A stretch of DNA of 64,000 bases, from sequence record NZ_CP043850.1. One strand, written 5' to 3'. This DNA is from a plasmid. Of the stretch, positions 18,492 to 59,192 are shown piece after piece (within the stretch, counting starts at the first letter, position 1; every line of letters starts with the position of its first letter). The translations under genes and the position numbers were made by a program. Under the pieces are notes generated by a model. The model was not told where the DNA came from and searched no databases. It was given only the letters and a program-made list of their open reading frames with translations.

Positions 18492-18560
18492 GGTTGTCGA
18501 GATGCAGCGAAGAGTTCACACGACGCGCGGTGAACTCTTCGCATATCAGGCGGGATCCGG
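18492..18560. repeat. left-type terminal-inverted-repeat copy (GGTTGTCGAGATGCAGCGAAGAGTTCAC...GCGGGATCCGG) with internal 11-bp stem hairpin
   Basis: About 70% identical over about 70 bp to 57502-57570, and over 25-50 bp to 40752-40800 and 38243-38285. Contains the perfect palindrome GAAGAGTTCAC-N10-GTGAACTCTTC (18509-18540). Confidence 0.6.
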
Positions 18561-18782
18561 TCGGCGTGAAATCTGGGTGTCCCGGTGGGCGCTCCCGCGC
18601 GCCCCAGGGCCCGCCAGAAACGTACGGGCGGCTGCCGCTCTGGCGGGTCGGTTGTGGCGAGTCATGTGGCGGGCGGACAGGGTCGGATGTGGCGCGCACG
18701 GCGCATGGCGGGGTTGTCAACGTCGGCCGAATATTGACCCCTTATCGTCGTTGAATTTTGACCCCCTCGAATTGATGTGTTG

Positions 18783-19562
18783 TTACTTGCCCGCGGGTTG
18801 TGCGGGGGTCTTGAGGAGCTCGCGGCGTGCCCTGGTGCGGTAGGAGTCCCCGCCGAGGGTGAGGACTTCCGCGTGGTGAACGAGTCGGTCGATCATCGCG
18901 GCCGCGACGATGTCGTCGGAGAAGATCTCACCCCATCTGCCGAAGGGCATGTTGCTGGTGAGCACGATCGAGCCTTGCTCGTAGCGGGACGCGATGAGTT
19001 GGAAGAACAGGTTCGCGGCGTCCGCGTCGAATGGCAGGTAGCCGACCTCGTCGATGATCAGCATCCGGTAGCGGCGGAGTCGTTTCAGCTCATGCTCGAG
19101 CCGGCCGGCTGCGTGCGCGGCCTGGAGTCGGCCAGCCCAGCCGGTCGCGGTATCGAACAACACCGGGTATCCAGCGTGCGCGGCTTTGATGCCGAGGCCG
19201 ATCGCGAGGTGTGTTTTGCCGACACCGGGTGGGCCGAGCAGGATCACGTTCTCCGCTTTCGGGATGAACGTTGTCGTCGCGAGGTGAGCGAGGACATCGC
19301 GACGCAGCGAGGGCTGATGGTCGGCGTTGAAGTCGTCCAGGGTCTTCACCGCGGGGAAGTGAGCGCCCGCGATTCGCAGTGTCGTTCCGTTCGCTTCCCG
19401 GTCCGCGACCTGGCGTTACAGGACCGCGGTGAGGTATTCCTCGTGGGACCAGCCCTCGGTGCGGGCTTGATCGCCGAGGGTCTCCCAGACCCGGCCGATC
19501 GTGGGGGTCTTCAACGCCCGGGTCAGGTATCCCATCGTCGCCGCGATCTCCGTTTCGGGCAT
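18783..19562 (-). pseudogene. istB: IstB helper ATPase gene inactivated by nonsense mutation (copy 1)
   Basis: Copy 2 encodes the full 259-aa IstB (GPPGVGKTHLA Walker A). In copy 1 codon CAA is TAA (plus-strand TTACAG at 19417-19422 versus TTGCAG at 24531-24536). This leaves a 71-aa N-terminal ORF and a 188-aa internal-Met ORF (18783-19349). Confidence 0.8.
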
Positions 19563-20821
19563 CAGAGGACCTCACCGGTTCGAGGATCGACAGGGAAATC
19601 GACGCCGAACAACTCGTCGTAGTCGGGCAGTTCCCGAAACACCACGCTGGCCGCTGGCTGCCCGCGATGGTGCAGTCGTTCTCGGTCGCGTTTCGCGGCG
19701 CTGAACGTGGAGCGCAGCCCCCTCGCGATCTCGACGTGGACAGGGTCGATGACGGTCGCGTGTTTCGCCCAACAGCGTTCGTGGTCAGCGACGGTGCGGC
19801 CATCGCAGATCACGATCACTCGTGTCAGCGTGGCCGTCACATCCACCAGCCGCCCAATCACGCGAGGGTCAACGGAGTAGTCGTTGGCATCGATGCGGAC
19901 GTAGTAGTCCCGCGCCAATCGGACCCGGTTTCGCAGCCCCGTCACCGGCGGCAGCGGCGGCAACACGGTCATCGCCTGCAGATCCCGCTCCACCACGTCG
20001 ATAGGTCGCCCGCCCAGCGAGCGGATCGTGCGGGAGTTCGCCCGCGGGAGCCACTCCGCGAGTTGGCTGTTGAAACTGTCCGGTGACGCGAACGACCGCC
20101 CGGGCAGGAACGATGTCTCCATGTACTGGTTGTTGCGTTCGGTCATGCCCTTGAACTCCGGATCCCGCGGAGGGGCGAGCACGATCCTCGTCGCCAACGT
20201 TCCCGCGAACGCGGCCGCGGCCTGCGTGACAGTCCCCTTCCCCCCGATCGCGGCCTCACGATCCCAGACGAGCGTCTTCGAGACCCGCCCGACACGAGAG
20301 ATCAGCTGCCACATCCCCGCGACCAGATCGCCCGCCTGCCGGGACGGGAGCATCACCGCGGACAGGAACCGGGAGAACGTCAACGTCATCACGAGCACCG
20401 GCAGCATCAACGCTTGCCCATGCCCGACAGGGATCCGCGGCTCCGGGAACCACAGATCCATCTGCGCGCTCTCGCCAGGAAGATGAATCAGACGATCCGC
20501 GGGATCGACCCCGGCATACTCCGGACGAATCGTCCGGATCCGATCCTTCAGAATCGTGATCGAGTGTTCCCACCCGATCCGCTCCGCGATCACCGTCGCC
20601 GGCATCCTCGCATCCACCACCAAGAGCTTGCGGATCTCGGGCTCCGCAGCGTCAACGAGTGACCCTTTCCCTGCCCGCTGATACGACGGCGGCGTCTCTG
20701 ACGCCAACGCCGACCGCACCGTATTTCGCGCCACACCGAGCCGACGCACGATCTCCTTGATCGACACGCCCTCCGCCCGATGCAACCGCCTGATCTCTGC
20801 CCACTGTTCCAAATTGATCAC
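19562..20821 (-). CDS. istA: IS21-family transposase IstA
   Basis: 419-aa ORF with N-terminal HTH (MINLEQWAEIRRLHRAEGVSIKEIVRRLGVARNTV) and a DDE catalytic core. Overlaps the istB start. Confidence 0.9.
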   Translation of the reverse strand: MINLEQWAEIRRLHRAEGVSIKEIVRRLGVARNTVRSALASETPPSYQRAGKGSLVDAAEPEIRKLLVVDARMPATVIAERIGWEHSITILKDRIRTIRPEYAGVDPADRLIHLPGESAQMDLWFPEPRIPVGHGQALMLPVLVMTLTFSRFLSAVMLPSRQAGDLVAGMWQLISRVGRVSKTLVWDREAAIGGKGTVTQAAAAFAGTLATRIVLAPPRDPEFKGMTERNNQYMETSFLPGRSFASPDSFNSQLAEWLPRANSRTIRSLGGRPIDVVERDLQAMTVLPPLPPVTGLRNRVRLARDYYVRIDANDYSVDPRVIGRLVDVTATLTRVIVICDGRTVADHERCWAKHATVIDPVHVEIARGLRSTFSAAKRDRERLHHRGQPAASVVFRELPDYDELFGVDFPVDPRTGEVL

Positions 20822-20893
20822 CCTCCAAAGGATGCCCGGAAGGGGTCAAAATTCCCCGACGCTCAGGGGTCAGTATTCACGCGTCGTCGACAG

Positions 20894-21664
20894 CACCCGC
20901 TCGGAAAGCCACCCGTCGCTCCGCTTCTGTCGGCCGTCGCCGCGGAGGCTGCGGGCACGTTCGTCCTCGTGTTCGGAGTCATCGGAGCGGCGACCTTCTC
21001 CGCATCCTTTTCGAAGTCGGATGTCGCGGTGAACATCGGATTCCTCGGCGTCGCCTTCGCGCTCGGGCTCAGCGTGCTCGTCGGCGCCATCGCCTGGGGC
21101 CCCGTGTCGGGCGGCCACTTCAACCCTGCCGTCACGCTCGGATTGGCGACCGCCGGATTCTTCTCGTGGCGCCGCGTCCCGGCCTACATCGCGTCGCAGT
21201 TCGTGGGTGGGCTACTCGCGTCCACCGCACTTGTTCTCGTTGCGGCGGGCACCAGCACGGAATTCCTGTCAGACGCTCGAAAGAGCGGATTCGCGTCCAC
21301 CGGCTGGGGACCGCTCTCACCAAGCGGGGCCTCCTGGGAGGCGGCGTTCCTCATCGAGGCGGTCACCACGGCCGTGCTCATGGCGGTCGTCCTCGCCGTC
21401 TCCACTCGTCGCACGGACGCGACGCTCGCGCCGCTGGCCATCGGGTTCACGCTGACGGTGGCGGCGCTCGTCGCGATCCCGATCTCGAACGGCTCTTTCA
21501 ACCCGGCCCGCTCGATAGCGACCGCCGTCTACGGGGGCCCTGTCGCGCTCGAGCAGTTGTGGCTCTCGCTCGTCGCGCCAACCCTCGGCGCGGCGCTGGT
21601 CGGCCTCGTCGTGACAGCGGTCCGCCACCTCGCGCCGCGAGCGAGGAGAAGCTCCTACATCTGA
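20894..21664 (+). CDS. aquaporin/MIP-family channel (AqpZ/GlpF-like), 5' end replaced by IS21 sequence
   Basis: Two NPA boxes (GHFNPAVT, GSFNPARS) and six TM helices. The in-frame ORF continues 38 codons into IS21 copy 1. No ATG/GTG/TTG start lies between the IS border (20892) and TM1 (AAGTFVLVFG). Confidence 0.65.
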   Translation, partial: HPLGKPPVAPLLSAVAAEAAGTFVLVFGVIGAATFSASFSKSDVAVNIGFLGVAFALGLSVLVGAIAWGPVSGGHFNPAVTLGLATAGFFSWRRVPAYIASQFVGGLLASTALVLVAAGTSTEFLSDARKSGFASTGWGPLSPSGASWEAAFLIEAVTTAVLMAVVLAVSTRRTDATLAPLAIGFTLTVAALVAIPISNGSFNPARSIATAVYGGPVALEQLWLSLVAPTLGAALVGLVVTAVRHLAPRARRSSYI

Positions 21665-22882: not shown

Positions 22883-23719
22883 TTACTTCTGGATGAAGGC
22901 GAGGAGGTCAGGGTTGATGACCTCGGCGTGCGTGGTCAGCATGCCGTGCGGGTAGCCGGCGTACAGCTTCAGCTCAGAGTTCTGGAGGAGCTCGTGCTGC
23001 AGGAGCGCGGCGGCCTTGTAGGGAACGACCTGGTCGTCGTCGCCCTGCATGACGAGAACGGGGACCGTGATGGCCTTGAGGTCTTCGGTCTGGTCGGTCT
23101 CGGAGAAGGCCTTGATGCCCTCGTAGTGAGCGAGCGCGCTGCCCGTCATGCCCTGACGCCACCAGTTCGCGACGACCGGCTCGGACACCTCGACACCGTC
23201 GCGGTTGAAGCCGTAGAACGGACCCGACGCCACGGCCTGGAAGAACTCGGCACGGTTGGCGGCGAGAGCGGAACGGAAACCGTCGAGGACCTCGATGGGC
23301 GTGCCCTCGGGGTTGCTGTCGGACTTCAGCATGATGGGAGGAACCGAGGAGACGAGCACGGCCTTGGCGACACGACCCTGGGGCTGACCGTACTTGGCGA
23401 CGTAGCGAGCGACCTGGCCGCCGCCGGTGGAGTGGCCGATGTGGATGGCGTTCTGCAGGTCGAGGTGCTCGACGACGGCGTTCACGTCGCTGGCGTAGTG
23501 GTCCATGTCGTGGCCGGTGCTGATCTGCGACGAACGTCCGTGGCCGCGGCGGTCGCTGGCGACGACGCGGTAGCCCTTCGAGAGGAAGTAGAGCATCTGT
23601 GCGTCCCAGTCGTCGGACGACAGCGGCCAGCCGTGGTGGAACACGATGGGCTGGGCGTTCTTGTCGCCCCAGTCCTTGAAGTAGATCTCTGCGCCGTCTT
23701 CGGTGGTGATGTATCCCAT
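22883..23719 (-). CDS. alpha/beta-hydrolase, non-haem haloperoxidase/esterase-like
   Basis: 278 aa from MGYITTEDGAEIYF. Nucleophile elbow IGHSTGG plus HGWPLSSDDW and C-terminal Asp/His. Typical bromoperoxidase A2 / chloroperoxidase fold. Confidence 0.8.
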   Translation of the reverse strand: MGYITTEDGAEIYFKDWGDKNAQPIVFHHGWPLSSDDWDAQMLYFLSKGYRVVASDRRGHGRSSQISTGHDMDHYASDVNAVVEHLDLQNAIHIGHSTGGGQVARYVAKYGQPQGRVAKAVLVSSVPPIMLKSDSNPEGTPIEVLDGFRSALAANRAEFFQAVASGPFYGFNRDGVEVSEPVVANWWRQGMTGSALAHYEGIKAFSETDQTEDLKAITVPVLVMQGDDDQVVPYKAAALLQHELLQNSELKLYAGYPHGMLTTHAEVINPDLLAFIQK

Positions 23720-23896
23720 GATGAGTCCTTTGTCATGTCGTCGAACGAGCAAGCCCGCGCGACTGGTGGGTAGTTTGCGCCTCGACGATGTGGCGACTGC
23801 ATTCACGGTAACTTTCGGGCGCCCGCGATGTCAACGTCGGCCGAATATTGACCCCTTATCGTCGTTGAATTTTGACCCCCTCGAATTGATGTGTTG

Positions 23897-24676
23897 TTAC
23901 TTGCCCGCGGGTTGTGCGGGGGTCTTGAGGAGCTCGCGGCGTGCCCTGGTGCGGTAGGAGTCCCCGCCGAGGGTGAGGACTTCCGCGTGGTGAACGAGTC
24001 GGTCGATCATCGCGGCCGCGACGATGTCGTCGGAGAAGATCTCACCCCATCTGCCGAAGGGCATGTTGCTGGTGAGCACGATCGAGCCTTGCTCGTAGCG
24101 GGACGCGATGAGTTGGAAGAACAGGTTCGCGGCGTCCGCGTCGAATGGCAGGTAGCCGACCTCGTCGATGATCAGCATCCGGTAGCGGCGGAGTCGTTTC
24201 AGCTCATGCTCGAGCCGGCCGGCTGCGTGCGCGGCCTGGAGTCGGCCAGCCCAGCCGGTCGCGGTATCGAACAACACCGGGTATCCAGCGTGCGCGGCTT
24301 TGATGCCGAGGCCGATCGCGAGGTGTGTTTTGCCGACACCGGGTGGGCCGAGCAGGATCACGTTCTCCGCTTTCGGGATGAACGTTGTCGTCGCGAGGTG
24401 AGCGAGGACATCGCGACGCAGCGAGGGCTGATGGTCGGCGTTGAAGTCGTCCAGGGTCTTCACCGCGGGGAAGTGAGCGCCCGCGATTCGCAGTGTCGTT
24501 CCGTTCGCTTCCCGGTCCGCGACCTGGCGTTGCAGGACCGCGGTGAGGTATTCCTCGTGGGACCAGCCCTCGGTGCGGGCTTGATCGCCGAGGGTCTCCC
24601 AGACCCGGCCGATCGTGGGGGTCTTCAACGCCCGGGTCAGGTATCCCATCGTCGCCGCGATCTCCGTTTCGGGCAT
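23897..24676 (-). CDS. istB: IS21-family helper ATPase IstB (intact)
   Basis: 259 aa with Walker A GPPGVGKTHLA and Walker B LLIIDEVGY. Confidence 0.9.
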   Translation of the reverse strand: MPETEIAATMGYLTRALKTPTIGRVWETLGDQARTEGWSHEEYLTAVLQRQVADREANGTTLRIAGAHFPAVKTLDDFNADHQPSLRRDVLAHLATTTFIPKAENVILLGPPGVGKTHLAIGLGIKAAHAGYPVLFDTATGWAGRLQAAHAAGRLEHELKRLRRYRMLIIDEVGYLPFDADAANLFFQLIASRYEQGSIVLTSNMPFGRWGEIFSDDIVAAAMIDRLVHHAEVLTLGGDSYRTRARRELLKTPAQPAGK

Positions 24677-25935
24677 CAGAGGACCTCACCGGTTCGAGGA
24701 TCGACAGGGAAATCGACGCCGAACAACTCGTCGTAGTCGGGCAGTTCCCGAAACACCACGCTGGCCGCTGGCTGCCCGCGATGGTGCAGTCGTTCTCGGT
24801 CGCGTTTCGCGGCGCTGAACGTGGAGCGCAGCCCCCTCGCGATCTCGACGTGGACAGGGTCGATGACGGTCGCGTGTTTCGCCCAACAGCGTTCGTGGTC
24901 AGCGACGGTGCGGCCATCGCAGATCACGATCACTCGTGTCAGCGTGGCCGTCACATCCACCAGCCGCCCAATCACGCGAGGGTCAACGGAGTAGTCGTTG
25001 GCATCGATGCGGACGTAGTAGTCCCGCGCCAATCGGACCCGGTTTCGCAGCCCCGTCACCGGCGGCAGCGGCGGCAACACGGTCATCGCCTGCAGATCCC
25101 GCTCCACCACGTCGATAGGTCGCCCGCCCAGCGAGCGGATCGTGCGGGAGTTCGCCCGCGGGAGCCACTCCGCGAGTTGGCTGTTGAAACTGTCCGGTGA
25201 CGCGAACGACCGCCCGGGCAGGAACGATGTCTCCATGTACTGGTTGTTGCGTTCGGTCATGCCCTTGAACTCCGGATCCCGCGGAGGGGCGAGCACGATC
25301 CTCGTCGCCAACGTTCCCGCGAACGCGGCCGCGGCCTGCGTGACAGTCCCCTTCCCCCCGATCGCGGCCTCACGATCCCAGACGAGCGTCTTCGAGACCC
25401 GCCCGACACGAGAGATCAGCTGCCACATCCCCGCGACCAGATCGCCCGCCTGCCGGGACGGGAGCATCACCGCGGACAGGAACCGGGAGAACGTCAACGT
25501 CATCACGAGCACCGGCAGCATCAACGCTTGCCCATGCCCGACAGGGATCCGCGGCTCCGGGAACCACAGATCCATCTGCGCGCTCTCGCCAGGAAGATGA
25601 ATCAGACGATCCGCGGGATCGACCCCGGCATACTCCGGACGAATCGTCCGGATCCGATCCTTCAGAATCGTGATCGAGTGTTCCCACCCGATCCGCTCCG
25701 CGATCACCGTCGCCGGCATCCTCGCATCCACCACCAAGAGCTTGCGGATCTCGGGCTCCGCAGCGTCAACGAGTGACCCTTTCCCTGCCCGCTGATACGA
25801 CGGCGGCGTCTCTGACGCCAACGCCGACCGCACCGTATTTCGCGCCACACCGAGCCGACGCACGATCTCCTTGATCGACACGCCCTCCGCCCGATGCAAC
25901 CGCCTGATCTCTGCCCACTGTTCCAAATTGATCAC
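24676..25935 (-). CDS. istA: IS21-family transposase IstA
   Basis: Identical to 19562-20821. Confidence 0.9.
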   Translation of the reverse strand: MINLEQWAEIRRLHRAEGVSIKEIVRRLGVARNTVRSALASETPPSYQRAGKGSLVDAAEPEIRKLLVVDARMPATVIAERIGWEHSITILKDRIRTIRPEYAGVDPADRLIHLPGESAQMDLWFPEPRIPVGHGQALMLPVLVMTLTFSRFLSAVMLPSRQAGDLVAGMWQLISRVGRVSKTLVWDREAAIGGKGTVTQAAAAFAGTLATRIVLAPPRDPEFKGMTERNNQYMETSFLPGRSFASPDSFNSQLAEWLPRANSRTIRSLGGRPIDVVERDLQAMTVLPPLPPVTGLRNRVRLARDYYVRIDANDYSVDPRVIGRLVDVTATLTRVIVICDGRTVADHERCWAKHATVIDPVHVEIARGLRSTFSAAKRDRERLHHRGQPAASVVFRELPDYDELFGVDFPVDPRTGEVL

Positions 25936-26080
25936 CCTCCAAAGGATGCCCGGAAGGGGTCAAAATTCCCCGACGCTCAGGGGTCAGTATTCACGCGTCG
26001 TCGACAGGGGTCCCTCGCCACAAACGACCGAATCTGTCGAGTCAGTTGCAGAGCGCCGGGGTCAAGGGAACGACTCCGCC

Positions 26081-29129: not shown

Positions 29130-29182
29130 CCCGGCGAGCCATAGCGCCATGGTCAGCAAGGTGAGGCCCCAGTAGGTTCGCT

Positions 29183-42357: not shown

Positions 42358-42359
42358 GT

Positions 42360-46719: not shown

Positions 46720-47031
46720 TCAGGAGCGAACGAGCCGGTTGATGGCGTCGGTGGCTTCCTGGATCTTCTCGACGGCCGCCTCGTCGCTGAGCTTGGCGGC
46801 ATCAAGCACGCAGTGCTTGAGATGGTCGTCGAGCAGACCAGTCGCGACCCCCTGGAGGGCACGGGTCAGGGCGGAGACCTGGGTGAGGATGTCGATGCAG
46901 TACTTCTCCTCATCGATCATCTTCGCGATCCCACGCGCCTGTCCTTCGATGCGCTTCATGCGGCCGAGATAGCGCTCCTTGTCGCTGATGTAGCCGTGCT
47001 GGTGGGAATCGTTATCGACAGACATGGGCAT
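46720..47031 (-). CDS. csoR: CsoR/RcnR-family copper-sensing repressor
   Basis: About 103 aa from MPMSVDNDSHQHGYI. Signature HGYISDKERYLGRMKRIEGQARGIAKMIDEEKYCIDILTQ...H..C (Cys-His-Cys ligand pattern). Directly downstream of the CopB-like ATPase. Confidence 0.8.
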   Translation of the reverse strand: MPMSVDNDSHQHGYISDKERYLGRMKRIEGQARGIAKMIDEEKYCIDILTQVSALTRALQGVATGLLDDHLKHCVLDAAKLSDEAAVEKIQEATDAINRLVRS

Positions 47032-47035
47032 GTCC

Positions 47036-49273: not shown

Positions 49274-49343
49274 GATTCCTCTCCTCCGTCATCGAGCCAG
49301 GCCGATTGCCGCTCACCCGGTGGCCGGGCAAGCGAACGTCGGC

Positions 49344-49961
49344 TCAGGACGCTGGTTGGATCTCGCTCTCGACGACCCACTTGTGGTTCGTCATCTTCAT
49401 GCCGTCCGTCTCGTAGTCGACCATGTAGACCGTCTCATCGGTGGACGAAGCAATGATGGCCTTTACGCCTTCCATGCCTTCCATGTGCTCGGCGAGCAGA
49501 GTCACCTCTGTGCCGTCGGCCAGGCGCGCGTCGCCGGCATCCTCAATTTCTTCCTGCACGACCCACTTGTGATCAGTGACGGGGTCGCCGCCACCTGCGG
49601 GCGTGTAGTTCACGGAGTACGTGTACGTGTCGAATGCGCCGGAAATCGTTGCTGTAGCCCCTTCCATGCCTTCCATGTGGTCGGCCGTGAGCTGCACCTC
49701 GGTACCGACAGGGTAGGTGGGCTCACTGGCTTCGGCGATACCCTCGGGTGCCGGTCCGCCGTCCATCGGGTGCTCCATCTCTTCATCACCGCTTTCTGCG
49801 TTGTTGCCGCCGTGGCCCTGATGCTCCTCAGTAGCCGAGGGGTCGGTCTGCTGGTTGTCGTCTGCTCCGCTGGCGCAACCGGCGAGCACGAGCGCCACTC
49901 CGAGGGCTCCCGCTGCCAGTCCTGTTCGCAGTCTCCTCTGCATGTCATTTCCTTTCATCAA
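49344..49961 (-). CDS. DUF1541/YdhK-like copper-associated lipoprotein (duplicated domain)
   Basis: Lipobox LAGC. Two repeats carrying HMEGMEG...Y.V.Y and a Met/His-rich linker. This family typically sits next to copper ATPases. Confidence 0.6.
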   Translation of the reverse strand: MMKGNDMQRRLRTGLAAGALGVALVLAGCASGADDNQQTDPSATEEHQGHGGNNAESGDEEMEHPMDGGPAPEGIAEASEPTYPVGTEVQLTADHMEGMEGATATISGAFDTYTYSVNYTPAGGGDPVTDHKWVVQEEIEDAGDARLADGTEVTLLAEHMEGMEGVKAIIASSTDETVYMVDYETDGMKMTNHKWVVESEIQPAS

Positions 49962-49973
49962 TATGCCTACCCT

Positions 49974-49990
49974 ATACCCCTAGGGGGTAC
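49974..49990. promoter_or_regulatory. CsoR-type operator (TACCCCTAGGGGGTA) followed by shared TACTAGTCAA box
   Basis: Lies between the ydhK-like start (49961) and the ferredoxin stop. The same GGGTAC...TACTAGTCAA arrangement recurs upstream of copZ (57070-57100). Confidence 0.55.
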
Positions 49991-50040
49991 TAGTCAAGAC
50001 TTGTGTGTTGTGTCGGTATGGATCAATCGGAAACCCCTTC

Positions 50041-50370
50041 TCAGAGGGTCTGCTCGTGTTGGATGGGCAATGCGGCGATGAGGGGATGGTCGAAGCCCGT
50101 CGGTCCGGTCTTCGCGGCTCCTCCGGGAGAACCCAACTCGTCGAAGAACTCGACGTTGGCCTTGGAGTAGTCAGACCATTCGTCGGGCAGGTCGTCTTCG
50201 TAGTAGATGGCCTCGACGGGGCAGACCGGTTCGCAGGCTCCGCAGTCGACGCATTCGTCGGGGTGGATGTAGAGCGAGCGTTCGCCCTCGTAGATGCAGT
50301 CGACAGGACATTCGTCGATGCAGGCGCGGTCCTTGACGTCCACGCAGGGAAGCGCGATCACGTAGGTCAT
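50041..50370 (-). CDS. 7Fe ferredoxin (FdxA-type, 3Fe-4S + 4Fe-4S)
   Basis: 109 aa with CxxDxxCxxxCP and CxxCxxCxxxCP cluster motifs ([21 protein letters not shown]). Confidence 0.85.
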
Positions 50371-51644
50371 GGCTGCTCCTCTCGGTCGGGTGCGGATCGG
50401 CGGTGAGAGCCGGTGGGAGGCTCGGGGAAGTCGTCAGCCTCTGCCGGGCCTGCGGCCGGGTGCGGGATGCGCAGGCGCAGGACGGTGGCGACGAGGCTGA
50501 GGGCGATGATGATCGCACCGAGGATCGTCATCGTCCCCGACAGGGTGAGCACCGGCACGAGCAATCCGGCGACGATGGTGGGCACGCCGAATGCCAGGTA
50601 GGCAACTGTGTAGATCACAGCCATCACGGCGGCGCGTTCCGACGATGCCGTGTGGGGCATGAGTGTGCGCAGTACCCCGAGGAACGCTGTGCCGAACCCG
50701 GAACCGACGATCGCGACCGAGGCGACATAGGCTGGGTAGGAACCGAGTGCGAGGGCGCCGATGCTCACTGCGGTGCCGAACGCCAGGGCACTGGTCGCAT
50801 ACAGGCTGATGGTGCGGGCGGAACGCCGCTGTAGGACGGAGGAGGCGGTGACTCCGGAGATCGCCAGTGCGAAGAGGACGATCCCAGCTTGGGTGTGCGT
50901 GGAGCCCCCAAGCTCACTGCCGACGAGGTCGGCTCCGAGCGCAAGGAAGAGTCCGTTGGTCGCCCACCCGGCGATGATCACGGGCACTCCGACGGTGAAC
51001 ATGCGGCGTAGGTGCGGTGGCACGGTGAACCGCGGACGGAGGTCGCCACGTCGTATCTGGGTCTTCGGGACCAGTTCCGGTGTGCTCCACACGACCGTTG
51101 CCACGATGAGGAAGGCAAGCACGAGCGACCCGAAGACGGCAGTTGTCGGTTCGGAGGTGAGATCGAGGAGAAGTGCAGCACCGAGAGCCCCGGCCCCAAG
51201 GCCAATCATCGGGCCGATCGTGTTCCACAGGGCTGCGATGTTCCGATGTGACGGGGACTCGAAGTCGATCATCATCGCCGACAGCGCCGGGATCAGCAGA
51301 CCCGCTGCGAGCCCTTGCAAGGCTCGGGCGACCAGGAGCGCCGCGAGGCTACCGGCGAACCAGAACATGGCCACGCTCAGCGCCAGCGCCAAAGAACCGG
51401 CGGCCACGACCGGACGTCGGCCGACGTGGTCGGAGAGTGGTCCGAGGTAGAGCAGCGCGGCCAGGAGGGTGAAGGTGTAGACCGCGAACACGAGTGTGGT
51501 GGCGACGGGGATGAGTCCGAGCCGTTCGGCGATCTGGGGATAGAACAAGGACGGCGCGCTGGCAGCGGCCATCATGAGAATGGTCGCTGCCAGCGAGAGC
51601 ACGAAGCCCCACCGTGGGATCTGCCTAATACAGTCTCCCGCCAT
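50367..51644 (-). CDS. MFS transporter
   Basis: 425 aa with 12 predicted TM helices and an MFS-like GRR/PxxP motif pattern. Confidence 0.75.
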
Positions 51645-51647
51645 TGC

Positions 51648-52793
51648 CTATGCCCGCACGCCGTGGAGCTGCTGCCCCCACTGGTAGACGGTGCCGACTG
51701 CGTCGATGCCAGTGACGCCGACGACGATGCCGTCGATCTCGTGGCGGACGATGAACTCCTCACCCGCTTCCAGGTGGGCGTCTGCGCCGGCTGTGTACCC
51801 GACTCCGGAGATCATCTGACCGTAGACCATTGCCATGTAAGGGCTGCGTGGCAGGTAGGCGCCCGGATCGTCGCTAACGCCGAGGTCGTGCAATGCGGCC
51901 CGCGCGGCATGCGCACCCTGTGCGGCGGCGTCTTCCCAATGGTCGATGCGCCAGGCGTCCAGTGCTTCGTCGTGGTGCGTGGCCACGCCTCCGGCTGCGT
52001 AGACGTGGTCTGCCGCGGCGCGGAGGTGATCGTCGACGTCGATACCGTTCGTCCACGGTGACGGGGCTGCGGGCGTCGTGCCGAGCGCGAGGAGAAGGAA
52101 GTCAGCCACGACGGGATTTCCGTCGTTGAGGGTGATGGTGACACCGGATTCTGTTTCGTCGACATGCTGGAGAGTGCGACCGAATCGGGCCTGCACCTTG
52201 GCGGCATGGTCGGCGGCGAGGCGCTCAGCCACGGGCGCCCCAAACGCTCCGACGCCGGGAACTGAACTGCGGGAGACCAGCGTGACCATGTGTCCGTCGG
52301 CTTGCAGAGACGAGGCCGTCTCGGCTGCGATGATTCCACCGCCGTAGATCGCTACCCGCGCGGGTCGCCCCAGTCCGGTCAGCAGCTTTCGGATGCCCAG
52401 GGCATCCCCCACGGAGTGAAGAGCGGTGACCCGCCCTTGTCCGGCGTCGTCGCCGCCGAACACGTCAGCGGGCAGGGAGCGGGGCATGCTCCCGGTCGCG
52501 ACGATGAGCGCGTCGTAGGAGACTTGTGCGCCGGAGGTCAACTGGGCCTGCTTCGCCGAGGTATCGACTTTAAGCACGGTGTCGGCGATGACCTCGATCT
52601 GAGGCAGCGGGAGCTTGATCATCTCCGGCGGTGTCTGACCGAACGCGATTCCCTTGATGAGCATCCGCGTATAGGGCGTCTCCCCGGTGCGGGTCACCAG
52701 CGTCACCCGGACATCGTCGCGTGAGGCGAGAGTGCGGGCGGCTGCGGCCCCGGCTGCTCCCGATCCGAGGATGAGGACGTGCTGTGGGGTCAT
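51648..52793 (-). CDS. FAD-dependent pyridine nucleotide-disulfide oxidoreductase (ferredoxin reductase-like)
   Basis: 381 aa with an N-terminal FAD GxGxxG (ILGSGAAGAAAAR), a second NAD(P) GxGxxA (AIYGGGIIAAE) and a C-terminal dimerisation region. Confidence 0.8.
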   Translation of the reverse strand: MTPQHVLILGSGAAGAAAARTLASRDDVRVTLVTRTGETPYTRMLIKGIAFGQTPPEMIKLPLPQIEVIADTVLKVDTSAKQAQLTSGAQVSYDALIVATGSMPRSLPADVFGGDDAGQGRVTALHSVGDALGIRKLLTGLGRPARVAIYGGGIIAAETASSLQADGHMVTLVSRSSVPGVGAFGAPVAERLAADHAAKVQARFGRTLQHVDETESGVTITLNDGNPVVADFLLLALGTTPAAPSPWTNGIDVDDHLRAAADHVYAAGGVATHHDEALDAWRIDHWEDAAAQGAHAARAALHDLGVSDDPGAYLPRSPYMAMVYGQMISGVGYTAGADAHLEAGEEFIVRHEIDGIVVGVTGIDAVGTVYQWGQQLHGVRA

Positions 52794-52839
52794 AGAAGAA
52801 CTCCTGGATGCTGGTCGTGATCGAACTGATGCGCCGGCG

Positions 52840-53193
52840 TCAGGAGCGCACGAGGCGGGCGATGGCCTCGGACGCCTCGCCGAGCCTCTGCTCGCTGACT
52901 GGTCCGCCGGCGAGTGCGGCGTCGAGGACGCAATGCTTGAGGTGATCGTCGAGCAGGCCGAGGGCGACGTTTTCGAGTGCCCTGGTGACTGCGGAGATCT
53001 GGGTGAGGATGTCGATGCAGTAGCGGTCCTCGTCGACCATCCGATCGATGCCGCGGATTTGGCCTTCCAGGCGGCGCAGGCGATTGCGGTACTTCGTCTT
53101 ATCGCTGATGTATCCGTGGACGGACGCGTCGCCGTCGCCTCCTGCGGGGCAGGTGTCGAGATGGGTTTCGGTGGTGGGAGTCGTAGTGGTCAT
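52840..53193 (-). CDS. csoR: CsoR/RcnR-family copper-sensing repressor (second paralogue)
   Basis: 117 aa with HGYISDKTKYRNRLRRLEGQIRGIDRMVDEDRYCIDILTQ...H..C. Confidence 0.8.
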   Translation of the reverse strand: MTTTTPTTETHLDTCPAGGDGDASVHGYISDKTKYRNRLRRLEGQIRGIDRMVDEDRYCIDILTQISAVTRALENVALGLLDDHLKHCVLDAALAGGPVSEQRLGEASEAIARLVRS

Positions 53194-53259
53194 GTCGGCT
53201 CGCTCCGATCAGGTGGCGGGGTGCCGCAGCGGTGCCGCGGCACCCCGCACGCTGGTGGA

Positions 53260-53568
53260 TTACGCCATGTTGGCGGCGTACTTGGCTGGGTCCGAATCGA
53301 ACGCGGGCCCACAGCCAGCGCAGCAGAAGTAGTAGCGCTCATCCTCGAAGTCGCGGTAGAGGCCGGCGGCCTCGGCGGTCTTCTTGCTGACCGGGGTGCC
53401 GACCATGACCGGGCAGGTAGTCATGTCATCGGCGCCCCCGCCAAGAAGGTTCTCGCGTCCACCGTTCTCCACGGCCGGGTTGGTCTCGTTCGTGCTGCAG
53501 CAGCTGCTCATTCTCTGGTGTTCCTTCGTTATTGGATTCGTGTGGATGGGTGGGTTCTCGTACGTCAC
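53260..53568 (-). CDS. YHS-domain (TRASH-like) copper-binding protein
   Basis: 102 aa with the C-terminal motif [10 protein letters not shown]...YYFCCAGC. Start overlaps the copA stop. Confidence 0.6.
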
Positions 53569-55835
53569 TTCGAGGCGACGCTCGTGAACCCGCGCAGGCG
53601 GAGGCTGTTGCCGACGACGAAGACGCTGGAGAACGCCATCGCCGCACCTGCGAGCATGGGGTTGAGCATGCCGAGCGCAGCGACCGGGATCGCGGCGGTG
53701 TTGTAAGCGAATGCCCAGAACAGGTTGGTCTTGATCGTCGACAGGGTCTTCCTGGACAGGCGGATCGCGTCGACGGCGGCCCGCAGGTCACCGCGCACGA
53801 GCGTGATGTCGGAGGCCTCGATCGCGACGTCCGTGCCGGTGCCCATCGCGAGGCCCAGGTCGGCCTGCGCGAGCGCGGGGGCGTCGTTGACGCCGTCGCC
53901 GACCATCGCGACGATCTTGCCCTCTTCCTGGAGGCGGGTGACGACGTCGACCTTGTCCTTGGGTAGCACTTCGGCGATGACCTCGTCGATGCCGACCTCG
54001 GACGCGATCTGGCGGGCCACGGCCTCGTTGTCACCGGTGAGCAGCACCGGGGTCAGGCCGATCTCCTTGAGCCCGCGGATCGCCTCGGCGCTCGTGGGCT
54101 TGACGGTGTCGGCGACGACCAGGATGCCACGCGCAGCACCGTCCCAGCCGATCGCGACGACCGTCTTGCCCTCGCCCTCGGCCTGGGCCTTCGCCTGTGC
54201 GACCTCCGGAGAGAGCTTCTGCGACCAGTCCGCCAGCAGAGACTCGCGGCCGACGACGACCGGGGTCCCCTCGACGATGCCCTGCACGCCCTTGCCCTCG
54301 ACATTGGCGAAGTCCTCTGGAGTAGGCAGCTGGCCGACTTCCTGGGTCGCGCCCTTGGCGATCGCCTGCGCAATCGGATGCTCGGAAGAGTCTTCCAGTG
54401 CACCGGCGAAACGCAGCAGCTCCGCACGATCCACACCGGGCTCAGTGATCACGTCGGTCAGAGTCATCTTGCCGCTGGTGACGGTGCCGGTCTTATCGAG
54501 CACGACGGTGTCGACCTTGCGAGTGGACTCCAGCACCTCCGGACCCTTGATGAGGACGCCCATCTGCGCACCGCGCCCGGTGCCGACGAGCAGCGCGGTC
54601 GGGGTTGCCAGACCCAGCGCGCAGGGGCAGGCGATGACGAGCACGGCGACCGCTGCGGTGAACGCGGCGGCGACGGGGAACCCGCCTCCCAGCCAGGCGC
54701 CGAGGGTGATGAACGCGACGACGATGACGATCGGCACGAAGATGCCGGAGATGCGATCGGCCAGACGCTGCACCTCGGCCTTGCCGGTCTGCGCGTCCTC
54801 GACGAGCTTCGCCATCTGTGCGAGCTGTGTGTCCGAACCCACACGAGTCGCCCGCACGACCAGGCGGCCGCCGGCGTTGACGGTGGCACCGGTGACCGAG
54901 TCGCCCTCGCGGACCTCGACCGGCACGGACTCGCCGGTGAGCATCGAGGCGTCCACCGCGGAGGAGCCGGAGGTCACGAGACCGTCGGTGGCGATCTTCT
55001 CGCCTGGACGGACGATGAACTCGTCGCCGACCGCCAGCTCAGAGGTGGGGATCTTCACCTCTACGCCGTCGCGGAGTACGGCGACTTCCTTCGCGCCCAG
55101 CTCCAGGAGGGCGCGCAGCGCGGCCCCGGCCTGGCGCTTGGATCGCTTCTCGAAGTAGCGGCCGGCGAGGATGAACATCGTCACGCCCGCGCCGACTTCG
55201 AGGTAGATGTTCGCCGCGCCATCCGACGGAGCGATCGTGAACTCGAAGGGGTGCGTCATGCCGGGAGTGCCGGCAGTGCCGAGGAAGAGCGCGTAGAGCG
55301 ACCAGAGCAGTGCGACGGAGGTGCCCATCGAGATGAGCGTGTCCATCGTCGCCGCACCGTGCTTGAGGTTTGTCCACGCCGCCTTGTGGAACGGCCAAGC
55401 TCCCCAGATGATCACCGGTGCGGCCAGGGCGAGTGAGGCCCACTGCCAATACGTGAACTGCAGCGCGGGGATCATCGCCATCGCGATTACGGGAACAGTG
55501 AGCACGATCGCGCCGATCAGCCGATGCCGCAGCGAGGTGAGCTCACTGTCTTCCTCCTCCCCGGCCTCGGTCTCCGACGTGTTCGCCGTAGTGTCCTTGG
55601 GCTTGGGCAGTGCGGCCGTGTACCCGGTCTTCTCGACCTCGGCGACCAGCAGTGACGGATCGTAGCCGGCAGGCACGGTGACCTTAGCCTTCTCAGTGGC
55701 GTAGTTGACGGTGGCCGCGACGCCATCGAGCTTGTTCAGCTTCTTCTCGATCCGGTTCGCGCAGGAGGCGCAGGTCATCCCGCCGATCTCCAACTCGATG
55801 TCCGGCCCACCCGTTGGGGGCGCTGATGTGCTCAT
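53565..55835 (-). CDS. copA: copper-translocating P1B-1 ATPase CopA
   Basis: 756 aa with N-terminal HMA domain ([15 protein letters not shown]), CPC ([12 protein letters not shown]), DKTGTVT, HP and [10 protein letters not shown]. Confidence 0.9.
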
Positions 55836-55881
55836 CCTCTTCCTTCTTTCTCAGCTCTCGTGCGACGCCGGGCCCTGCGGG

Positions 55882-56823
55882 TCAGTGGCCGTCGGAATGC
55901 GAATCGTCTGTCTTCGTGCCGTCACCATGCTCGGCGTCGATCACGAACTCGGCGGTGTGCACCTGCCCGTCGACCTGGAAGTCCAGGTAGAGCAGGTAAC
56001 GGTCGGCGGTCGGGGCCTCCGCTGCGAATCCGATGTCGGGTCCGGCCGTGTCCCCGGCCTGGGGCTGGTCGCCCTCGGCGTGGACGTGCAGGTAGGCGAG
56101 GTCACCCTCGCGCAGCGCCACTAAGTGGCCGAACGCGCCCAGGTAAGGCTCCAGCGTGGTCACCGGCTGACCGTCACGCTCGACCGAGATGGTGAGCTCG
56201 CTTGAGGTGCCCGCAGTGAGGTCGCCGTTGAGGGAGACGGTGTATCCGTCGACCTCGTCGGTGGGCTGCGCCTCGGTCTCGACAGGGGTGAAGTCGCCCG
56301 CGACCTCGATTGCGCGGGTGAGAGTGATGCCTTCGGCTTCCTCGCCCGCGGGTGTGAAGTCGGCGTACACGCGGTAGGTGCCCGCCTCGTCCCAGGTCCA
56401 CGGCACCGACCAGGTGCCTGTGCTCGTGTCGAGTTCGGGGTGCACGTGCTGGAAGCCGGCGCCGTCGGTGCGCACGGCGATCAGGTGCAGGTCCTTCTCG
56501 TGCGCGGTGGTGTATTCGGTCACCGGTTCGCCGGACTCGTCGAGGATCTGGAAGCTCAGGTCTCCATCCTCGCCTGCGGCCGTGGGGGCCTGGACCGGAG
56601 AGAGCACGAAGCCGTCCGCGCTTGCGGAGACCCCGTTCAGAGCGGGCTCCGCGGTTTCCTGCGCAGCGTCGCCGTGCCCTTCACCGTGTGCGTTCACGCC
56701 GCTTCCTTCTGCCCATGCTGCTGCGAAGCTATCGGGAATGACGGCGCCGGCGAGGCCGAAGGCCCCGCCGAACGCCACCACCAACCCGGCCCCGTAGAGC
56801 GCGAGCCGTCCTCCGGCCTTCAT
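55882..56823 (-). CDS. secreted His/Asp-rich protein of the cop operon (possible periplasmic copper-binding protein)
   Basis: 313 aa with N-terminal TM/signal, His-rich segments (HGEGHGDAAQE, HVHPE, HVHAEGD) and a C-terminal ...HGDGTKTDDSHSDGH. Confidence 0.45.
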   Translation of the reverse strand: MKAGGRLALYGAGLVVAFGGAFGLAGAVIPDSFAAAWAEGSGVNAHGEGHGDAAQETAEPALNGVSASADGFVLSPVQAPTAAGEDGDLSFQILDESGEPVTEYTTAHEKDLHLIAVRTDGAGFQHVHPELDTSTGTWSVPWTWDEAGTYRVYADFTPAGEEAEGITLTRAIEVAGDFTPVETEAQPTDEVDGYTVSLNGDLTAGTSSELTISVERDGQPVTTLEPYLGAFGHLVALREGDLAYLHVHAEGDQPQAGDTAGPDIGFAAEAPTADRYLLYLDFQVDGQVHTAEFVIDAEHGDGTKTDDSHSDGH

Positions 56824-57032
56824 CAGACGCGCACCGCCGAGTAGCCGGCCTCCTCGACCGCCGCGAGGACCTTGGCGTCGTCGATCTCGCCCTCGGCGGT
56901 GACGTTGAGCTTGCCGGTCTGCGCGCTGACTTGGATGTCCTGGACGCCGGGGATCTCGCTGACCTCCTCGCGGATCGACATCTCGCAGTGGCCGCAGGTC
57001 ATGCCCGTCACCTGGTAATCGTTCGAAGCCAT
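56823..57032 (-). CDS. copZ: CopZ-type heavy-metal-associated copper chaperone
   Basis: 69 aa with MTCGHC metal-binding motif and ferredoxin-like HMA fold. Confidence 0.85.
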   Translation of the reverse strand: MASNDYQVTGMTCGHCEMSIREEVSEIPGVQDIQVSAQTGKLNVTAEGEIDDAKVLAAVEEAGYSAVRV

Positions 57033-57069
57033 CAGGTGTCCTCCTTGTATGTCGGGTTGTACGTCGGGA

Positions 57070-57086
57070 GTACCCCTACCGGGTAC
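57070..57086. promoter_or_regulatory. CsoR-type operator (GTACCCCTACCGGGTAC) upstream of copZ-copA
   Basis: Palindrome GTACCC-N5-GGGTAC about 38 bp upstream of the copZ ATG, followed by a TACTAGTCAA box. Confidence 0.55.
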
Positions 57087-57657
57087 GTGTACTAGTCAAA
57101 CGTATACCCATGTCAGGTATTCCGCAAGGAGGGAGGCGATCGTGTGAGCTGCATTGCGCAAGTGCTGCAAACAATGGTTGGAGCGTCCGAGGTGTGCCTT
57201 GTGGTGCACCGATGCTGCGGGGCGATCCGCTGGGTTCTGGCGCTGCGCGTCGGAGAGTAGTGACCCCTCGGCTCATCAGAACCGTGGACTGCCTTGCCGC
57301 ATCGACGAAGGCAGCGAAGACTGGTACGAAACCGACTCGCGCCCAGACCCGTCAGTGAGTGGGGTCAACGCTCGGGAAGCGCGGTGCCGGAGACCCCAGG
57401 CAGGGGTCTCTGACGGTGACCCTGGTGAAGGCGCGCGGGCGCAGCAGCACGGGGACAGTCAGTGGCCGGGCCGATCCCGTGGAGGACGTCGTCACCCTCG
57501 GGGTTGTCGAGATGCAGCAAAGACTGCACGCGACTCGCCGTGAACCGTTCGGAGAGGGGGCGGGATCCGGTGTGTGAGGGAGCCTGGCCGGACGCCCCTG
57601 CCGTGCTGGGGCGGGGAGCAGGCTGGGGTATCGAGTCGACAACTCTAGGCTGTCACC

Positions 57658-58014
57658 GTGACCACTGTTTTAGATCACCTCCGCGCTGATGACCGCGAGC
57701 ACGTCGGGTACATCGAGATGACCGACGAAGGCCTCTTCATCCCCTACGACCTCCTGCGTCGGCGATGCGGTGAACCCATGGAGTCGACCGAGGCCGAAGA
57801 ACTGCTTGACACCGTCGGTTTGCAGGCGTTGGGCGAACAGTGGCTGCTTCGCACCGAGGGTGACGCATGGGTGCCCGTGGGCATCCAGGAGTTCTCACGA
57901 GAGGCCGTCACAGTGGCGCCGCGGCTCGATGACAGGGCGGTGGCCAAGGCGCCGGATCTCACCGCGACGGTGATGTTGTCGTTGCCGACGGATCGGCTCC
58001 GTTCCGCCGAATGA
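57658..58014 (+). CDS. hypothetical protein (cargo of TIR-flanked module)
   Basis: 118-aa acidic ORF. No recognisable motif. Confidence 0.3.
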   Translation: MTTVLDHLRADDREHVGYIEMTDEGLFIPYDLLRRRCGEPMESTEAEELLDTVGLQALGEQWLLRTEGDAWVPVGIQEFSREAVTVAPRLDDRAVAKAPDLTATVMLSLPTDRLRSAE

Positions 58015-58032
58015 GGCTGGGCGGTTCCCTTC

Positions 58033-58779
58033 TCAGGCGAAGATCTCCCGCAAGGGTGTCCACCCCACGGGAAGCGGCCCGCAGATGGCGGCTCGTTGCC
58101 TGTCTGCCTCATGGGACCAGCCCTGAGCTTGTCCCGGGCTGCCGACCAGACCCCGGGCCAGGCGGAGTCCCACGTCCTCCAGGACGGCGTCCGGGGCGCT
58201 GCCCCGGCGCACTGAGGCGCGCACGCTCCAGGGTTCATCCGCCCAGCCACCCCCGCGCAGACTGCGGTAGTCGCCGTAGCGGGCGGGATCGGCGTAGTCC
58301 CAGCACCATTCCCAGATGTTGCCGAGCATGTCGTGCAGACCGTGCGGGTTGGCTTTCTTCATGCCGACGGGCTGGGGGCCCTCAAGGTGGTCGAGGCTGG
58401 TCCAGGCGATGTCTTCAAGCGGCCCGTAGGTGGGCGAGGTCGTTCCGGCGCGGCAGGCGTACTCCCACTCGGCCTCGGTGGGCAATCGGTACCCGTCAGC
58501 GCTCGTGTTCCAGGTGACGGAGCGTCCGTCCCCAGCATGCGTGTAGGCCGGCTGCAGCTCTTCAGCATTGGATAGCTCGTTGCAGAGGTTGATGGTCTCG
58601 AACCATGTCAGAGGCGTGAGCGGGCGTCCGGTGCTCCGGTCACGGAGGGGGTGCACGGCCATCTCGAAGGGCTCCAGTTCCACATCCCGTGTGGTCCCGC
58701 GACGGGCGTCACGCAGGGTGATTTTTCCCGAAGACAGGGTGGCCATGGAGGGCTGGTTCATGGCGTCAGCGTCGCACAC
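58033..58779 (-). CDS. formylglycine-generating-enzyme (FGE-sulfatase / SUMF1) domain protein
   Basis: 248 aa with conserved FGE-sulfatase domain blocks (YRLPTEAEWEYACRAGT, HDMLGNIWEWCWD, SLRGGGWADEP). Confidence 0.75.
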   Translation of the reverse strand: MCDADAMNQPSMATLSSGKITLRDARRGTTRDVELEPFEMAVHPLRDRSTGRPLTPLTWFETINLCNELSNAEELQPAYTHAGDGRSVTWNTSADGYRLPTEAEWEYACRAGTTSPTYGPLEDIAWTSLDHLEGPQPVGMKKANPHGLHDMLGNIWEWCWDYADPARYGDYRSLRGGGWADEPWSVRASVRRGSAPDAVLEDVGLRLARGLVGSPGQAQGWSHEADRQRAAICGPLPVGWTPLREIFA

Positions 58780-59192
58780 GGGCTGACTGGAGAACCACGA
58801 GCTGCACCCGGACAGGGTTCAACTGTCAATACCTAAGTGGCTCGTGGTCGTATGAAACATATTTGCGCGTTTGTGAAATCTTCGCTGCATCTCGACAGGT
58901 GTCCATGCCAGAACCGGCGCCAGTCTGAGGCGTGATCTCCCGCCCCATCCCTGAGGGAAATGAGGCAGGAAGTCGCGGGATATTTCCCTCTGGAACGGGC
59001 TGGCCTGGAGGTGGTCGCTTGCGTCCGTTCGACTGCGTCGCTCAGCCGCAAGCGTACCCCCCATGTCAAGCGCGTGGAAGGGGGTGGGACCGGATCTGCC
59101 CTGGACGAGGGACATCACGGCGAGGATCGGGCCTTCTGGCTGGTGAGGGGCCCGTGCCCCGCGGTCATCGTCAAGAAGTGGAAGGGCAGAAG

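Follow-up and report, generated by a model that had tools for sequence, protein, structure and literature searches.

Tn7 of Escherichia coli and the Tn7-like transposons are bounded by TGT...ACA termini, have left and right ends that differ from one another and each contain multiple sites, leave a 5-bp target duplication, carry tnsA, tnsB, tnsC (tniB) and tniQ/tnsD near the right end, and insert in one orientation a few bp downstream of an essential conserved gene, right end proximal, where elements can stack at the attachment site. An Actinobacteria-dominated clade of such elements, with a Micrococcales-dominated subcommunity and with plasmid carriage, has been reported from a survey (Benler et al. 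2021, PMC8649781) whose main text does not mention dnaB and none of whose elements has been experimentally characterised; Faure et al. 2023 mention neither dnaB nor actinobacteria; and one actinobacterial Tn7-like element, Tn7706 of Rhodococcus erythropolis, has been named (PMC12915292, 2026). Here we analyse a 64,000-nucleotide stretch of plasmid DNA (record NZ_CP043850.1, hereafter the window), in which a 40.4-kb island (18495-58897) occupying a plasmid hotspot is punctuated by copies of a repeated terminus. Every Tn7 feature listed above recurs in this island or in elements with the same terminus elsewhere, and with a probability of about 0.88 we assign the repeats, as left and right ends, to a Tn7-like transposon lineage of Actinomycetota, and interpret the units in the window as derivatives that lack the tns genes. 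Tn7 itself differs in its attachment site (glmS, here dnaB), in its unrelated end sequences, and in that the relatives described here have some inverted subterminal sites, two TniQ proteins and no TnsE, while the window copies have no tns genes at all.

The window contains seven copies of the terminus, which begins TGTCGAGATGCAGCGAAGA..., four of a left type, all on the + strand, and three of a right type, all on the - strand. Allowing up to 3 mismatches, its consensus 25-mer is found at 18495(+), 40629-40653(-), 40690-40714(-), 40755(+), 57505(+) and 58873-58897(-), with no match expected by chance in the window (G+C 66.7%); the seventh copy, at 38243(+), is decayed. Repeat finding returned a left-type subterminal family at 18492, 40752 and 57502, plus 38243, on the + strand throughout, and a right-type family at 40591, 40652 and 58835, on the - strand throughout; Rfam detects no RNA family at the ends. 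An earlier reading made from the letters alone (the sequence-only reading) had recognised the recurrent terminus and proposed transposon ends of distinct left and right architecture, and both proposals are borne out. It had also counted 40652 as a separate right-type locus, but 40652-40712 is an exact 61-bp tandem repeat of 40591-40651 and represents the stub of a further right end rather than an independent third locus.

Distinct left and right ends, a TGT start and multiple subterminal repeats, all of them Tn7-like traits, are seen in the window ends themselves. Left end L1 (18495-18576, +, terminus TGTCGAG...) contains three GAAGAKTTCAC-like sites, at 18509-18519 (direct), 18530-18540 (inverted) and 18566-18576 (inverted), and left end L3 (40755-40837, +, terminus TGTAGAG...) contains them at 40769-40779 (direct), 40790-40800 (inverted) and 40827-40837 (inverted). 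The three GAAGATTTCAC-like sites thereby fall at equal spacing in L1 and L3 (direct at +15, inverted at +36, inverted at +72), a spacing kept despite sequence drift. The 11-bp-stem hairpin that had been ascribed to the left type holds for one copy: only 18495 has a perfect inverted repeat, of 13 bp, made up of two GAAGAGTTCAC sites in opposite orientation, and the arms in the 40755 and 57505 copies have drifted without compensation. The hairpin is simply the first two of the three left-end sites. L3 differs from the 19-nt terminus at a single position, and the same TGTAGAG variant terminates elements with intact duplications on plasmids pLMV7, pLMA7 and pCW.Ay. The remaining left ends are L4 (57505-57571, +), a 25-mer match internal to the unit we call B, and the decayed L2 (38243-38275, +), with 3 mismatches in the 19-nt terminus. 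The right ends are R1a (40578-40653, -), a full end reading TGTCGAG...TTTCAGAAACGCGCAAATATGTTTCATACG...CTTGACG; its stub R1b (40654-40714, -), 61 bp that are 100% identical to the outer part of R1a; and R2 (58823-58897, -), which matches the consensus terminus at 25/25 positions and adjoins a FtsK/SpoIIIE-type transfer gene (ORF from 58932). Micrococcus lacusdianchii (L096) and M. antarcticus (L006) have the same 220 bp of L1 in different surroundings, with homology breaking off at the start of an IS21 copy, at ~18714.

Right ends have their TTTCAC and TTTCAT sites spaced by 21 bp and, in addition, a conserved TTGAC(A/G) located ~65-75 nt inside every Micrococcus-type right end (58823-58830 and 40578-40585 in the window; also the right ends of pLMV7, pLMA7, pJD12, L024, L057 and L101). 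This last motif might serve as an inward-facing -35 box or as another site for a protein; a sigma-70 promoter scan of 57400-59000, which includes R2, returned no sigma-70-like site and no complete promoter. Beyond the first 14-19 bases the ends diverge into subtypes (TTGACA, TTTCAC, TTAGCA, TTGCAC and others), and the 8-mer adjoining the invariant terminus is found again within the 90 subterminal bp in 40 of 125 ends, compared with 7.5 +/- 2.5 for 8-mers taken from other subtypes. Such co-variation would be expected if the repeats were bound by a TnsB that evolves along with them and the outermost bases were held constant, and the subterminal repeats are putative TnsB-binding sites on this basis. 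As a separate observation, in a right end on the M. antarcticus chromosome (L101:1231-1263) the first 14 bases of the terminus are tandemly duplicated (TGTCGAGATGCAGC TGTCGAGATGCAGCGAAGA).

Flanking direct repeats and insertion polymorphism, the two marks for which the sequence-only reading had proposed to look, are both found. Perfect 5-bp direct repeats, as left by Tn7-like elements, abut the termini of seven elements, where ~0.03 would be expected by chance among 27 candidate pairs: unit B of the window (40755/58897; 18.1 kb; GGTGT, at 40750-40754 and 58898-58902), pLMV7 48361/57978 (9.6 kb; GTGGT), the tns-less pLMA7 element (L127, 4894-12178; 7,285 bp; GCTCC), the pCW.Ay element (L133, 3856-15720; 11.9 kb; GTGGC), the pGKT2 element (25.4 kb; CGATG), an element next to dnaB (L070; 1.9 kb; GCTGC) and an element in L086 (4.5 kb; ACATC). 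All but pGKT2, six of the seven, either lack a tns module or are too small for one. The empty site is provided by pJD12, which aligns straight across the pLMA7 element and has a single copy of GCTCC there; likewise pJD12 and pLMA7 both retain the pCW.Ay target, GCCAC, without interruption. For the window itself, the joined flanks of 18495 and 58897 found no uninterrupted match; the sister plasmids are only ~66% identical to its backbone. The pairings first put forward fare less well than the existence of the ends: the 3-bp GGT duplication suggested for 57505/58897 is part of a 5-bp signature that this pair carries at 4/5 positions only (GGGGT/GGTGT), and 18495 (18494 in the earlier numbering) or 38243 paired with 40653 or 40714 gives no duplication, the intact pair being 40755/58897. 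Apart from these, pJD12 (L126) has a 1.9-kb insertion at 5886-7767 with GCCGG on both sides and a normal right end, whose left boundary (CGACATGACTCC...) is not a TGTCGAG terminus; it may be a one-ended or cryptic-end event.

The same terminus bounds elements with a full Tn7-like gene set. On pGKT2 of Gordonia sp. KTR9, CGATG flanks both ends of an element running from 93546(+) to 118911(-), thereby defining 25,366 bp with a 5-bp duplication; from the right end inward it contains a hypothetical gene, a TnsA-like gene, TnsB (split by an IS3), TniB, two TniQ genes and defence cargo, the TniQ-family ORFs of 521 and 552 aa scoring 31 and 70 bits against Pfam TniQ (cut-off 27). Gordonia defluvii (L103) has the dnaB stop codon, 17 bp, a right end, a hypothetical gene, a TnsA-like gene and TnsB in that order. 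Four Dermatophilaceae contigs (L128-L131), reached via Phycicoccus TnsA homologues, share one architecture: dnaB, a full right end preceded by two truncated right-end stubs, a type I restriction-modification system, tnsA, tnsB, tniB, tniQ, two small ORFs, a second tniQ and cargo. A tnsA gene lies beside tnsB in all of the same-terminus elements pGKT2, L103, L059, L097 and L128-131, and an AAA+ regulator and a TniQ target selector, absent from the window, accompany them in the relatives. The G. defluvii TnsA scores 120.7 bits against NCBIfam NF033179 (TnsA_like_Actin; cut-off 110), and a four-sequence TnsB profile finds the TnsB of ShCAST (7svw) at E=2.5e-22; TniB matches the TnsC of V. cholerae (VchTnsC, 7rzy) at E=7e-5 and Pfam TniB at E=1.2e-15. 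Single-sequence PDB searches with TnsB or TnsA gave nothing and Pfam gave no matches to either; TnsB has partial NCBIfam matches to the DDE cores of IS481 and IS3. Having the protein family and host phylum of the Benler et al. 2021 clade, with TnsA passing the NF033179 cut-off, the lineage probably falls within it. The ends are those of a Tn7-like lineage that NCBI already annotates and not, as had been suggested, of an undescribed family. The kind of element is already known, and this lineage only from surveys; new are the details of end sequences, dnaB site, plasmid hotspot and stacking. Our search of the published literature found no description of the end sequences, the plasmid hotspot or tns-less derivatives and no paper pairing dnaB with Tn7-like targeting, and searching for the terminus string retrieved unrelated eukaryotic primers only.

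To survey the terminus we scanned genomes, one per species, for the exact 19-mer TGTCGAGATGCAGYRAAGA and collected at least 120 loci of 8 kb each. Hosts include Mycobacterium, Rhodococcus, Gordonia, Nocardioides, Micrococcus, Dermatophilaceae and Intrasporangiaceae, and the orders represented among the matches listed are Mycobacteriales, Micrococcales and Propionibacteriales. Cargo inside the ends is very diverse (ABC transporters, P-type ATPases, regulators, insertion sequences); ORF clustering of the 5 kb inside each end at 120 loci detected no conserved gene, and no insertion-sequence (IS) transposase or recombinase lies consistently beside the ends. The sole conserved neighbour is the replicative helicase DnaB (with inteins), which lies outside the terminus with its stop codon a few bases from the TGT and which suggested to us an attachment site. 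Of the 20 loci fetched in which the dnaB 3' end is included, 18 have the terminus 3-32 bp past the stop codon, mostly 3-8 bp, and wherever the end type or the tns genes can be read the dnaB-proximal terminus is the right, tns-proximal end. Insertion is thus orientation-specific at a fixed site downstream of a conserved gene, as in Tn7-like elements. A TGTCGAG terminus is present 11 bp past the dnaB stop codon even in the reduced genome of Mycobacterium lepromatosis (L091, chromosome 3,232,001-3,240,000).

Some loci have truncated right-end stubs, 18 and 40 bp long, in the interval that separates the dnaB stop codon from the full right end (L128:2196-2300; also L130, L049, L035 and L085); these look like scars of repeated insertion at almost one position. 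The complementary product, a right end minus its last 18 bp fused to a left end, is seen at pLMV7 54097 and L006 6202. At many loci two termini stand back to back a few bases apart, with spacers that vary from 0 to 11 bp. In mycobacteria the partner of a TGTCGAG left end, 0-8 bp away, is a second Tn7-like end type with terminus TGTAGGTTCTCA... and repeats TTCTCA-N-TGTCCA / TTGTCTCACG (L010:4626-4700, L068:2822-2900, L094:71-145, L116:4570-4650, and L019, L028 and L048). The same architecture is found ~240 bp upstream of tnsA in the pYLL1 element of Rhodococcus sp. YL-1 (L132:18831-18906), which like Tn7706 has tnsA, tnsB, tniB and tniQ and occurs on linear plasmids in many copies. In contrast to the elements described here, its TnsB is only ~27-29% identical and its end begins TGTAGGGTCTC..., not TGTCGAG, for which reasons we regard it as a sister family, the one whose ends face the TGTCGAG ends back to back in mycobacteria. 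The arrangement suggests stacking of elements from two distinct Tn7-like families at dnaB. We had considered the block outside the mycobacterial left ends to be an outer left end, and rejected this because its other strand starts TGTAGGTTCTC, a second-family end facing TGTCGAG; an apparent GGCGC duplication in L098, which had backed the outer-left-end reading, is probably due to chance.

Homologues of tnsA, tnsB, tniB and tniQ are absent from the window and from pLMV7, pLMA7 and pJD12 (tblastn, two protein sets), and the transposases that the window does encode (two IS21 copies, IS256, IS481-like) are cargo. The window copies are accordingly non-autonomous members, which supports the proposal of the sequence-only reading that these are cargo units without a transposase of their own and hence moved in trans. 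Autonomous members encode a heteromeric TnsA+TnsB transposase, an AAA+ adaptor TniB (TnsC) and two TniQ target selectors. TnsB would bind the terminal site and the subterminal repeats, three in a left end (~+15, +36, +72) and a close pair in a right end; TnsA and TnsB would excise the element at its TGT...ACA termini; and TniB with TniQ would direct insertion in one orientation, making the 5-bp duplication. Chromosomal copies lie just downstream of dnaB, right end proximal, and plasmid copies accumulate in the intergenic region upstream of the FtsK/SpoIIIE transfer gene of Micrococcus linear conjugative plasmids. The window units would be predicted to move only if a resident autonomous copy supplied the proteins in trans. 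Any correctly oriented left and right end could then be moved as one unit, which explains composites with spare internal ends.

The 40-kb island is a stack of non-autonomous Tn7-like units, nested and in a single orientation, in which two units each have an inner extra end; copper resistance, restriction and defence genes and insertion sequences make up its cargo. Unit A (18495-40714, 22.2 kb) is bounded by L1 and R1a/R1b. It contains two copies of IS21, the first of which interrupts L1 220 bp inward, an alpha/beta hydrolase, a GNAT protein, IS256, a resolvase, a low-GC AAA_15 ATPase, an MmeI-like restriction-modification enzyme, a GmrSD_C-like protein, a methyltransferase and a kinase, and terminates in the doubled right end, 40 bp (40715-40754) before unit B. 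L2 and R1a enclose the methyltransferase-to-kinase cassette; L2 with its outside flank (the GmrSD_C gene) and the methyltransferase is 92% identical to a segment of the M. antarcticus chromosome (L101), where the counterpart of L2 pairs with a right end 1.36 kb away. Unit B (40755-58897, 18,143 bp) is a non-autonomous Tn7-like element whose GGTGT duplication is perfect. Its cargo comprises ArsR, an IS481-like transposase, a tRNA-Cys, a copper-resistance block and the inner L4-R2 unit of 1.39 kb, which consists of a small ORF (57658-58014) and an FGE-sulfatase-domain gene (58033-58779). The copper block (45906-57329, 11.4 kb), which encodes two P-type ATPases, CsoR-type regulators, YdhK, an MFS transporter and an oxidoreductase, shares 90% identity with plasmids of Rothia amarae and R. 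terrae, and as the 21-kb stretch of the R. amarae plasmid around it contains no TGTCGAG end, the block was acquired by another route.

Several observations weigh against assigning the ends to a Tn7-like lineage, or at least against attributing the whole island to transposition. The exact-19-mer scan and its 8-kb loci bias the survey toward conserved termini; inverted subterminal sites within one end are unusual for Tn7 itself; plasmid insertions spread over ~190 bp and share no target sequence, a looser pattern than classical TnsD-type targeting; and no Micrococcus genome yielded an autonomous copy whose ends are of exactly the Micrococcus subtype. The nearest autonomous copy is in a Phycicoccus metagenome-assembled genome (L097), in which the right end is of the same TTCACAAACG...TATGAATCATA subtype and tnsA and tnsB lie ~4 kb further in; on plasmids, tblastn with TnsB returned, besides pGKT2, only homologues of <60% identity, those listed being ~26-30% identical, and hence no autonomous Micrococcus plasmid copy. 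Furthermore unit A and the inner pairs L2/R1a and L4/R2 have no intact duplications, meaning that parts of the island may stem from recombination or deletion rather than transposition. Taken further, this becomes the alternative that the window ends are dead relics, the island having been built mainly by homologous recombination between plasmids and by IS activity and its units being no longer mobilisable. The decay of L2, the interruption of L1 by IS21, the lack of tns genes in the window, and the resemblance of the spacer 40715-40754 to the flank of L1, a hint of recombination, all fit such an origin. We nonetheless hold it to be unlikely, though worth keeping in view: the unit B duplication is perfect, R2 has not departed from the consensus, and the TGTAGAG variant of L3 is shared with sister-plasmid elements that have perfect duplications and an empty site. 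The relic alternative in any case concerns present activity and not identity, and for the older parts of the island it is compatible with derivation from Tn7-like elements.

Identity itself is what a second alternative disputes, the suggestion (also present in the sequence-only reading) that the termini serve a site-specific recombinase in the manner of pdif/Xer modules or integron cassettes, with modules exchanged conservatively. The pdif modules of Acinetobacter plasmids are likewise discrete plasmid modules with short inverted boundary sites and no transposase inside; back-to-back termini do look like a palindromic site with a short spacer, and there is a resolvase gene in unit A and a tyrosine integrase beside the pGKT2 element. 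However, pdif modules use Xer recombination at 28-bp sites and leave no duplication, unlike the ends described here, which exceed 70 bp and are associated with tns genes. Conservative recombination does not duplicate its target, and the seven perfect 5-bp duplications and the clean pJD12 empty site therefore count against it; the variable back-to-back spacers, the lack of a recombinase conserved beside the ends at 120 loci and the tnsA, tnsB, tniB and tniQ of autonomous copies point the same way, leaving pdif/Xer or integron-cassette membership highly improbable. No more persuasive, and given scarcely any weight, is the idea that the termini belong to an ordinary IS family of the window (IS481-like, IS21 or IS3) whose transposase moves composite or MITE-like units: IS21 and an IS481-like rve transposase do lie inside the island, IS481, IS21 and IS3 ends begin TGT, and TnsB partly matches IS481 and IS3 cores, but the window IS21 copies have their own, different inverted repeats (TGTCAACGTCGGCC...), IS elements interrupt the cargo (as where the L096/L006 homology stops at the IS21 start), and it is tnsA/tnsB/tniB/tniQ modules, and no consistent IS transposase, that the ends flank, with duplications directly at the TGTCGAG termini. 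The sequence-only reading had already noted that the ends were unlike those of the IS families present, and with termini unlike the window IS21 repeats and no IS transposase conserved across 120 loci, we also rejected membership of Tn3, whose inverted repeats start GGGG, and of IS21, IS256, IS481 and IS3.

The Tn402/Tn5053 family requires separate mention. The Tn402 inverted repeat also starts TGTCG and ends CAC. Members of the Tn402/Tn5053 family (TniA, TniB, TniQ, TniR) are without TnsA, transpose replicatively with resolution by TniR and target res sites, whereas the relatives described here encode TnsA and insert beside dnaB; membership of that family was rejected. The resemblance is closer in lifestyle: class 1 integrons (defective Tn402/Tn5053 elements) and the AbaR/Tn6022 islands are similarly cargo-rich offshoots of the Tn7/Tn5053 superfamily, have kept both ends while losing their transposition genes, depend on functions supplied in trans, and grow by nesting and the capture of extra ends. 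Unlike class 1 integrons, the units here have no integron integrase and no attC sites.

The outer parts of the window consist of conjugation genes (VirB4-like ATPase, M23/NlpC peptidase, FtsK/SpoIIIE protein). The window and the Micrococcus linear plasmids pJD12, pLMA7, pCW.Ay and pSGAir0127 have a common backbone in the order VirB4-like ATPase, hypothetical gene, M23 peptidase, hypothetical gene, accessory region, FtsK/SpoIIIE; pLMV7 differs in that its accessory region follows the rep/par genes. The accessory region is ~2.7 kb long in pJD12, reaches 8 kb in pLMA7 and extends to 40.4 kb in the window. Right ends in the window, pLMV7, pLMA7 and pJD12 are located at different positions in homologous sequence upstream of the FtsK/SpoIIIE gene, and those of pCW.Ay and pSGAir0127 at further positions in the same ~190-bp stretch, always with the right end proximal; insertions in the five sister plasmids are independent and in one orientation. 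Doubled right ends or spare ends also occur in pLMA7, pCW.Ay and pSGAir0127, and in pLMA7 and pCW.Ay it is the outer end that is paired by the duplication, which fits composites moving as one unit via their outermost left and right ends. As a tentative extension, to which we give slightly less than even odds, the lineage may use the dnaB 3' end on chromosomes and a second pathway, perhaps through the second TniQ, to home upstream of FtsK/SpoIIIE on plasmids, where stacked tns-less mini-elements would form an array of exchangeable resistance and defence cassettes.

A 2025 comparison of Micrococcus linear plasmids noted accessory regions, left their boundaries unexplained and did not mention Tn7. 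With the ends defined, these 'variable regions' become defined mobile units whose cargo includes copper resistance, macrolide-type ABC-F/MFS and restriction or defence genes, and which would spread with no transposase of their own. An experimentally untouched actinobacterial Tn7 clade thereby gains defined end sequences, a 5-bp duplication signature and, in dnaB, a candidate attachment site; for annotation, the ends make it possible to place island borders in many genomes of actinobacteria. If dnaB targeting and mobilisation in trans hold true, the lineage would offer site-specific integration, ready for use, in Mycobacterium, Rhodococcus and Micrococcus. An ABC-F and MFS gene pair lies inside tns-less units at pLMA7 4894-12178, pCW.Ay 3856-15720 and pLMV7 48361-54096, and the 2025 plasmid comparison links erythromycin resistance to a sister plasmid, pLMA1.

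Some further features of the window were observed. The two IS21 copies (18710-20897 and 23829-26006) are 100% identical over the at least 300 nt compared and flank the alpha/beta-hydrolase gene (22883-23806) in a composite-transposon-like arrangement; istB of the first copy is apparently disrupted (188 aa versus 259 aa). Just left of L1, at 18387-18430, is a solitary 44-bp IS256 inverted repeat, 82% complementary to 29106-29149, the end of an intact IS256 (~27.7-29.15 kb). The G+C content of 31600-34100 is 50-52%, as against 67% overall, and this segment contains the gene for a 638-aa AAA_15/AAA_21 ATPase, which we take to be OLD/Gabija-like; together with the adjoining MmeI-like restriction-modification gene (34136-36976) and the GmrSD_C-like ORF it forms a small defence cluster. 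Within unit B, the tRNA-Cys (GCA) gene at 44974-45047(-) adjoins the IS481-like transposase gene.

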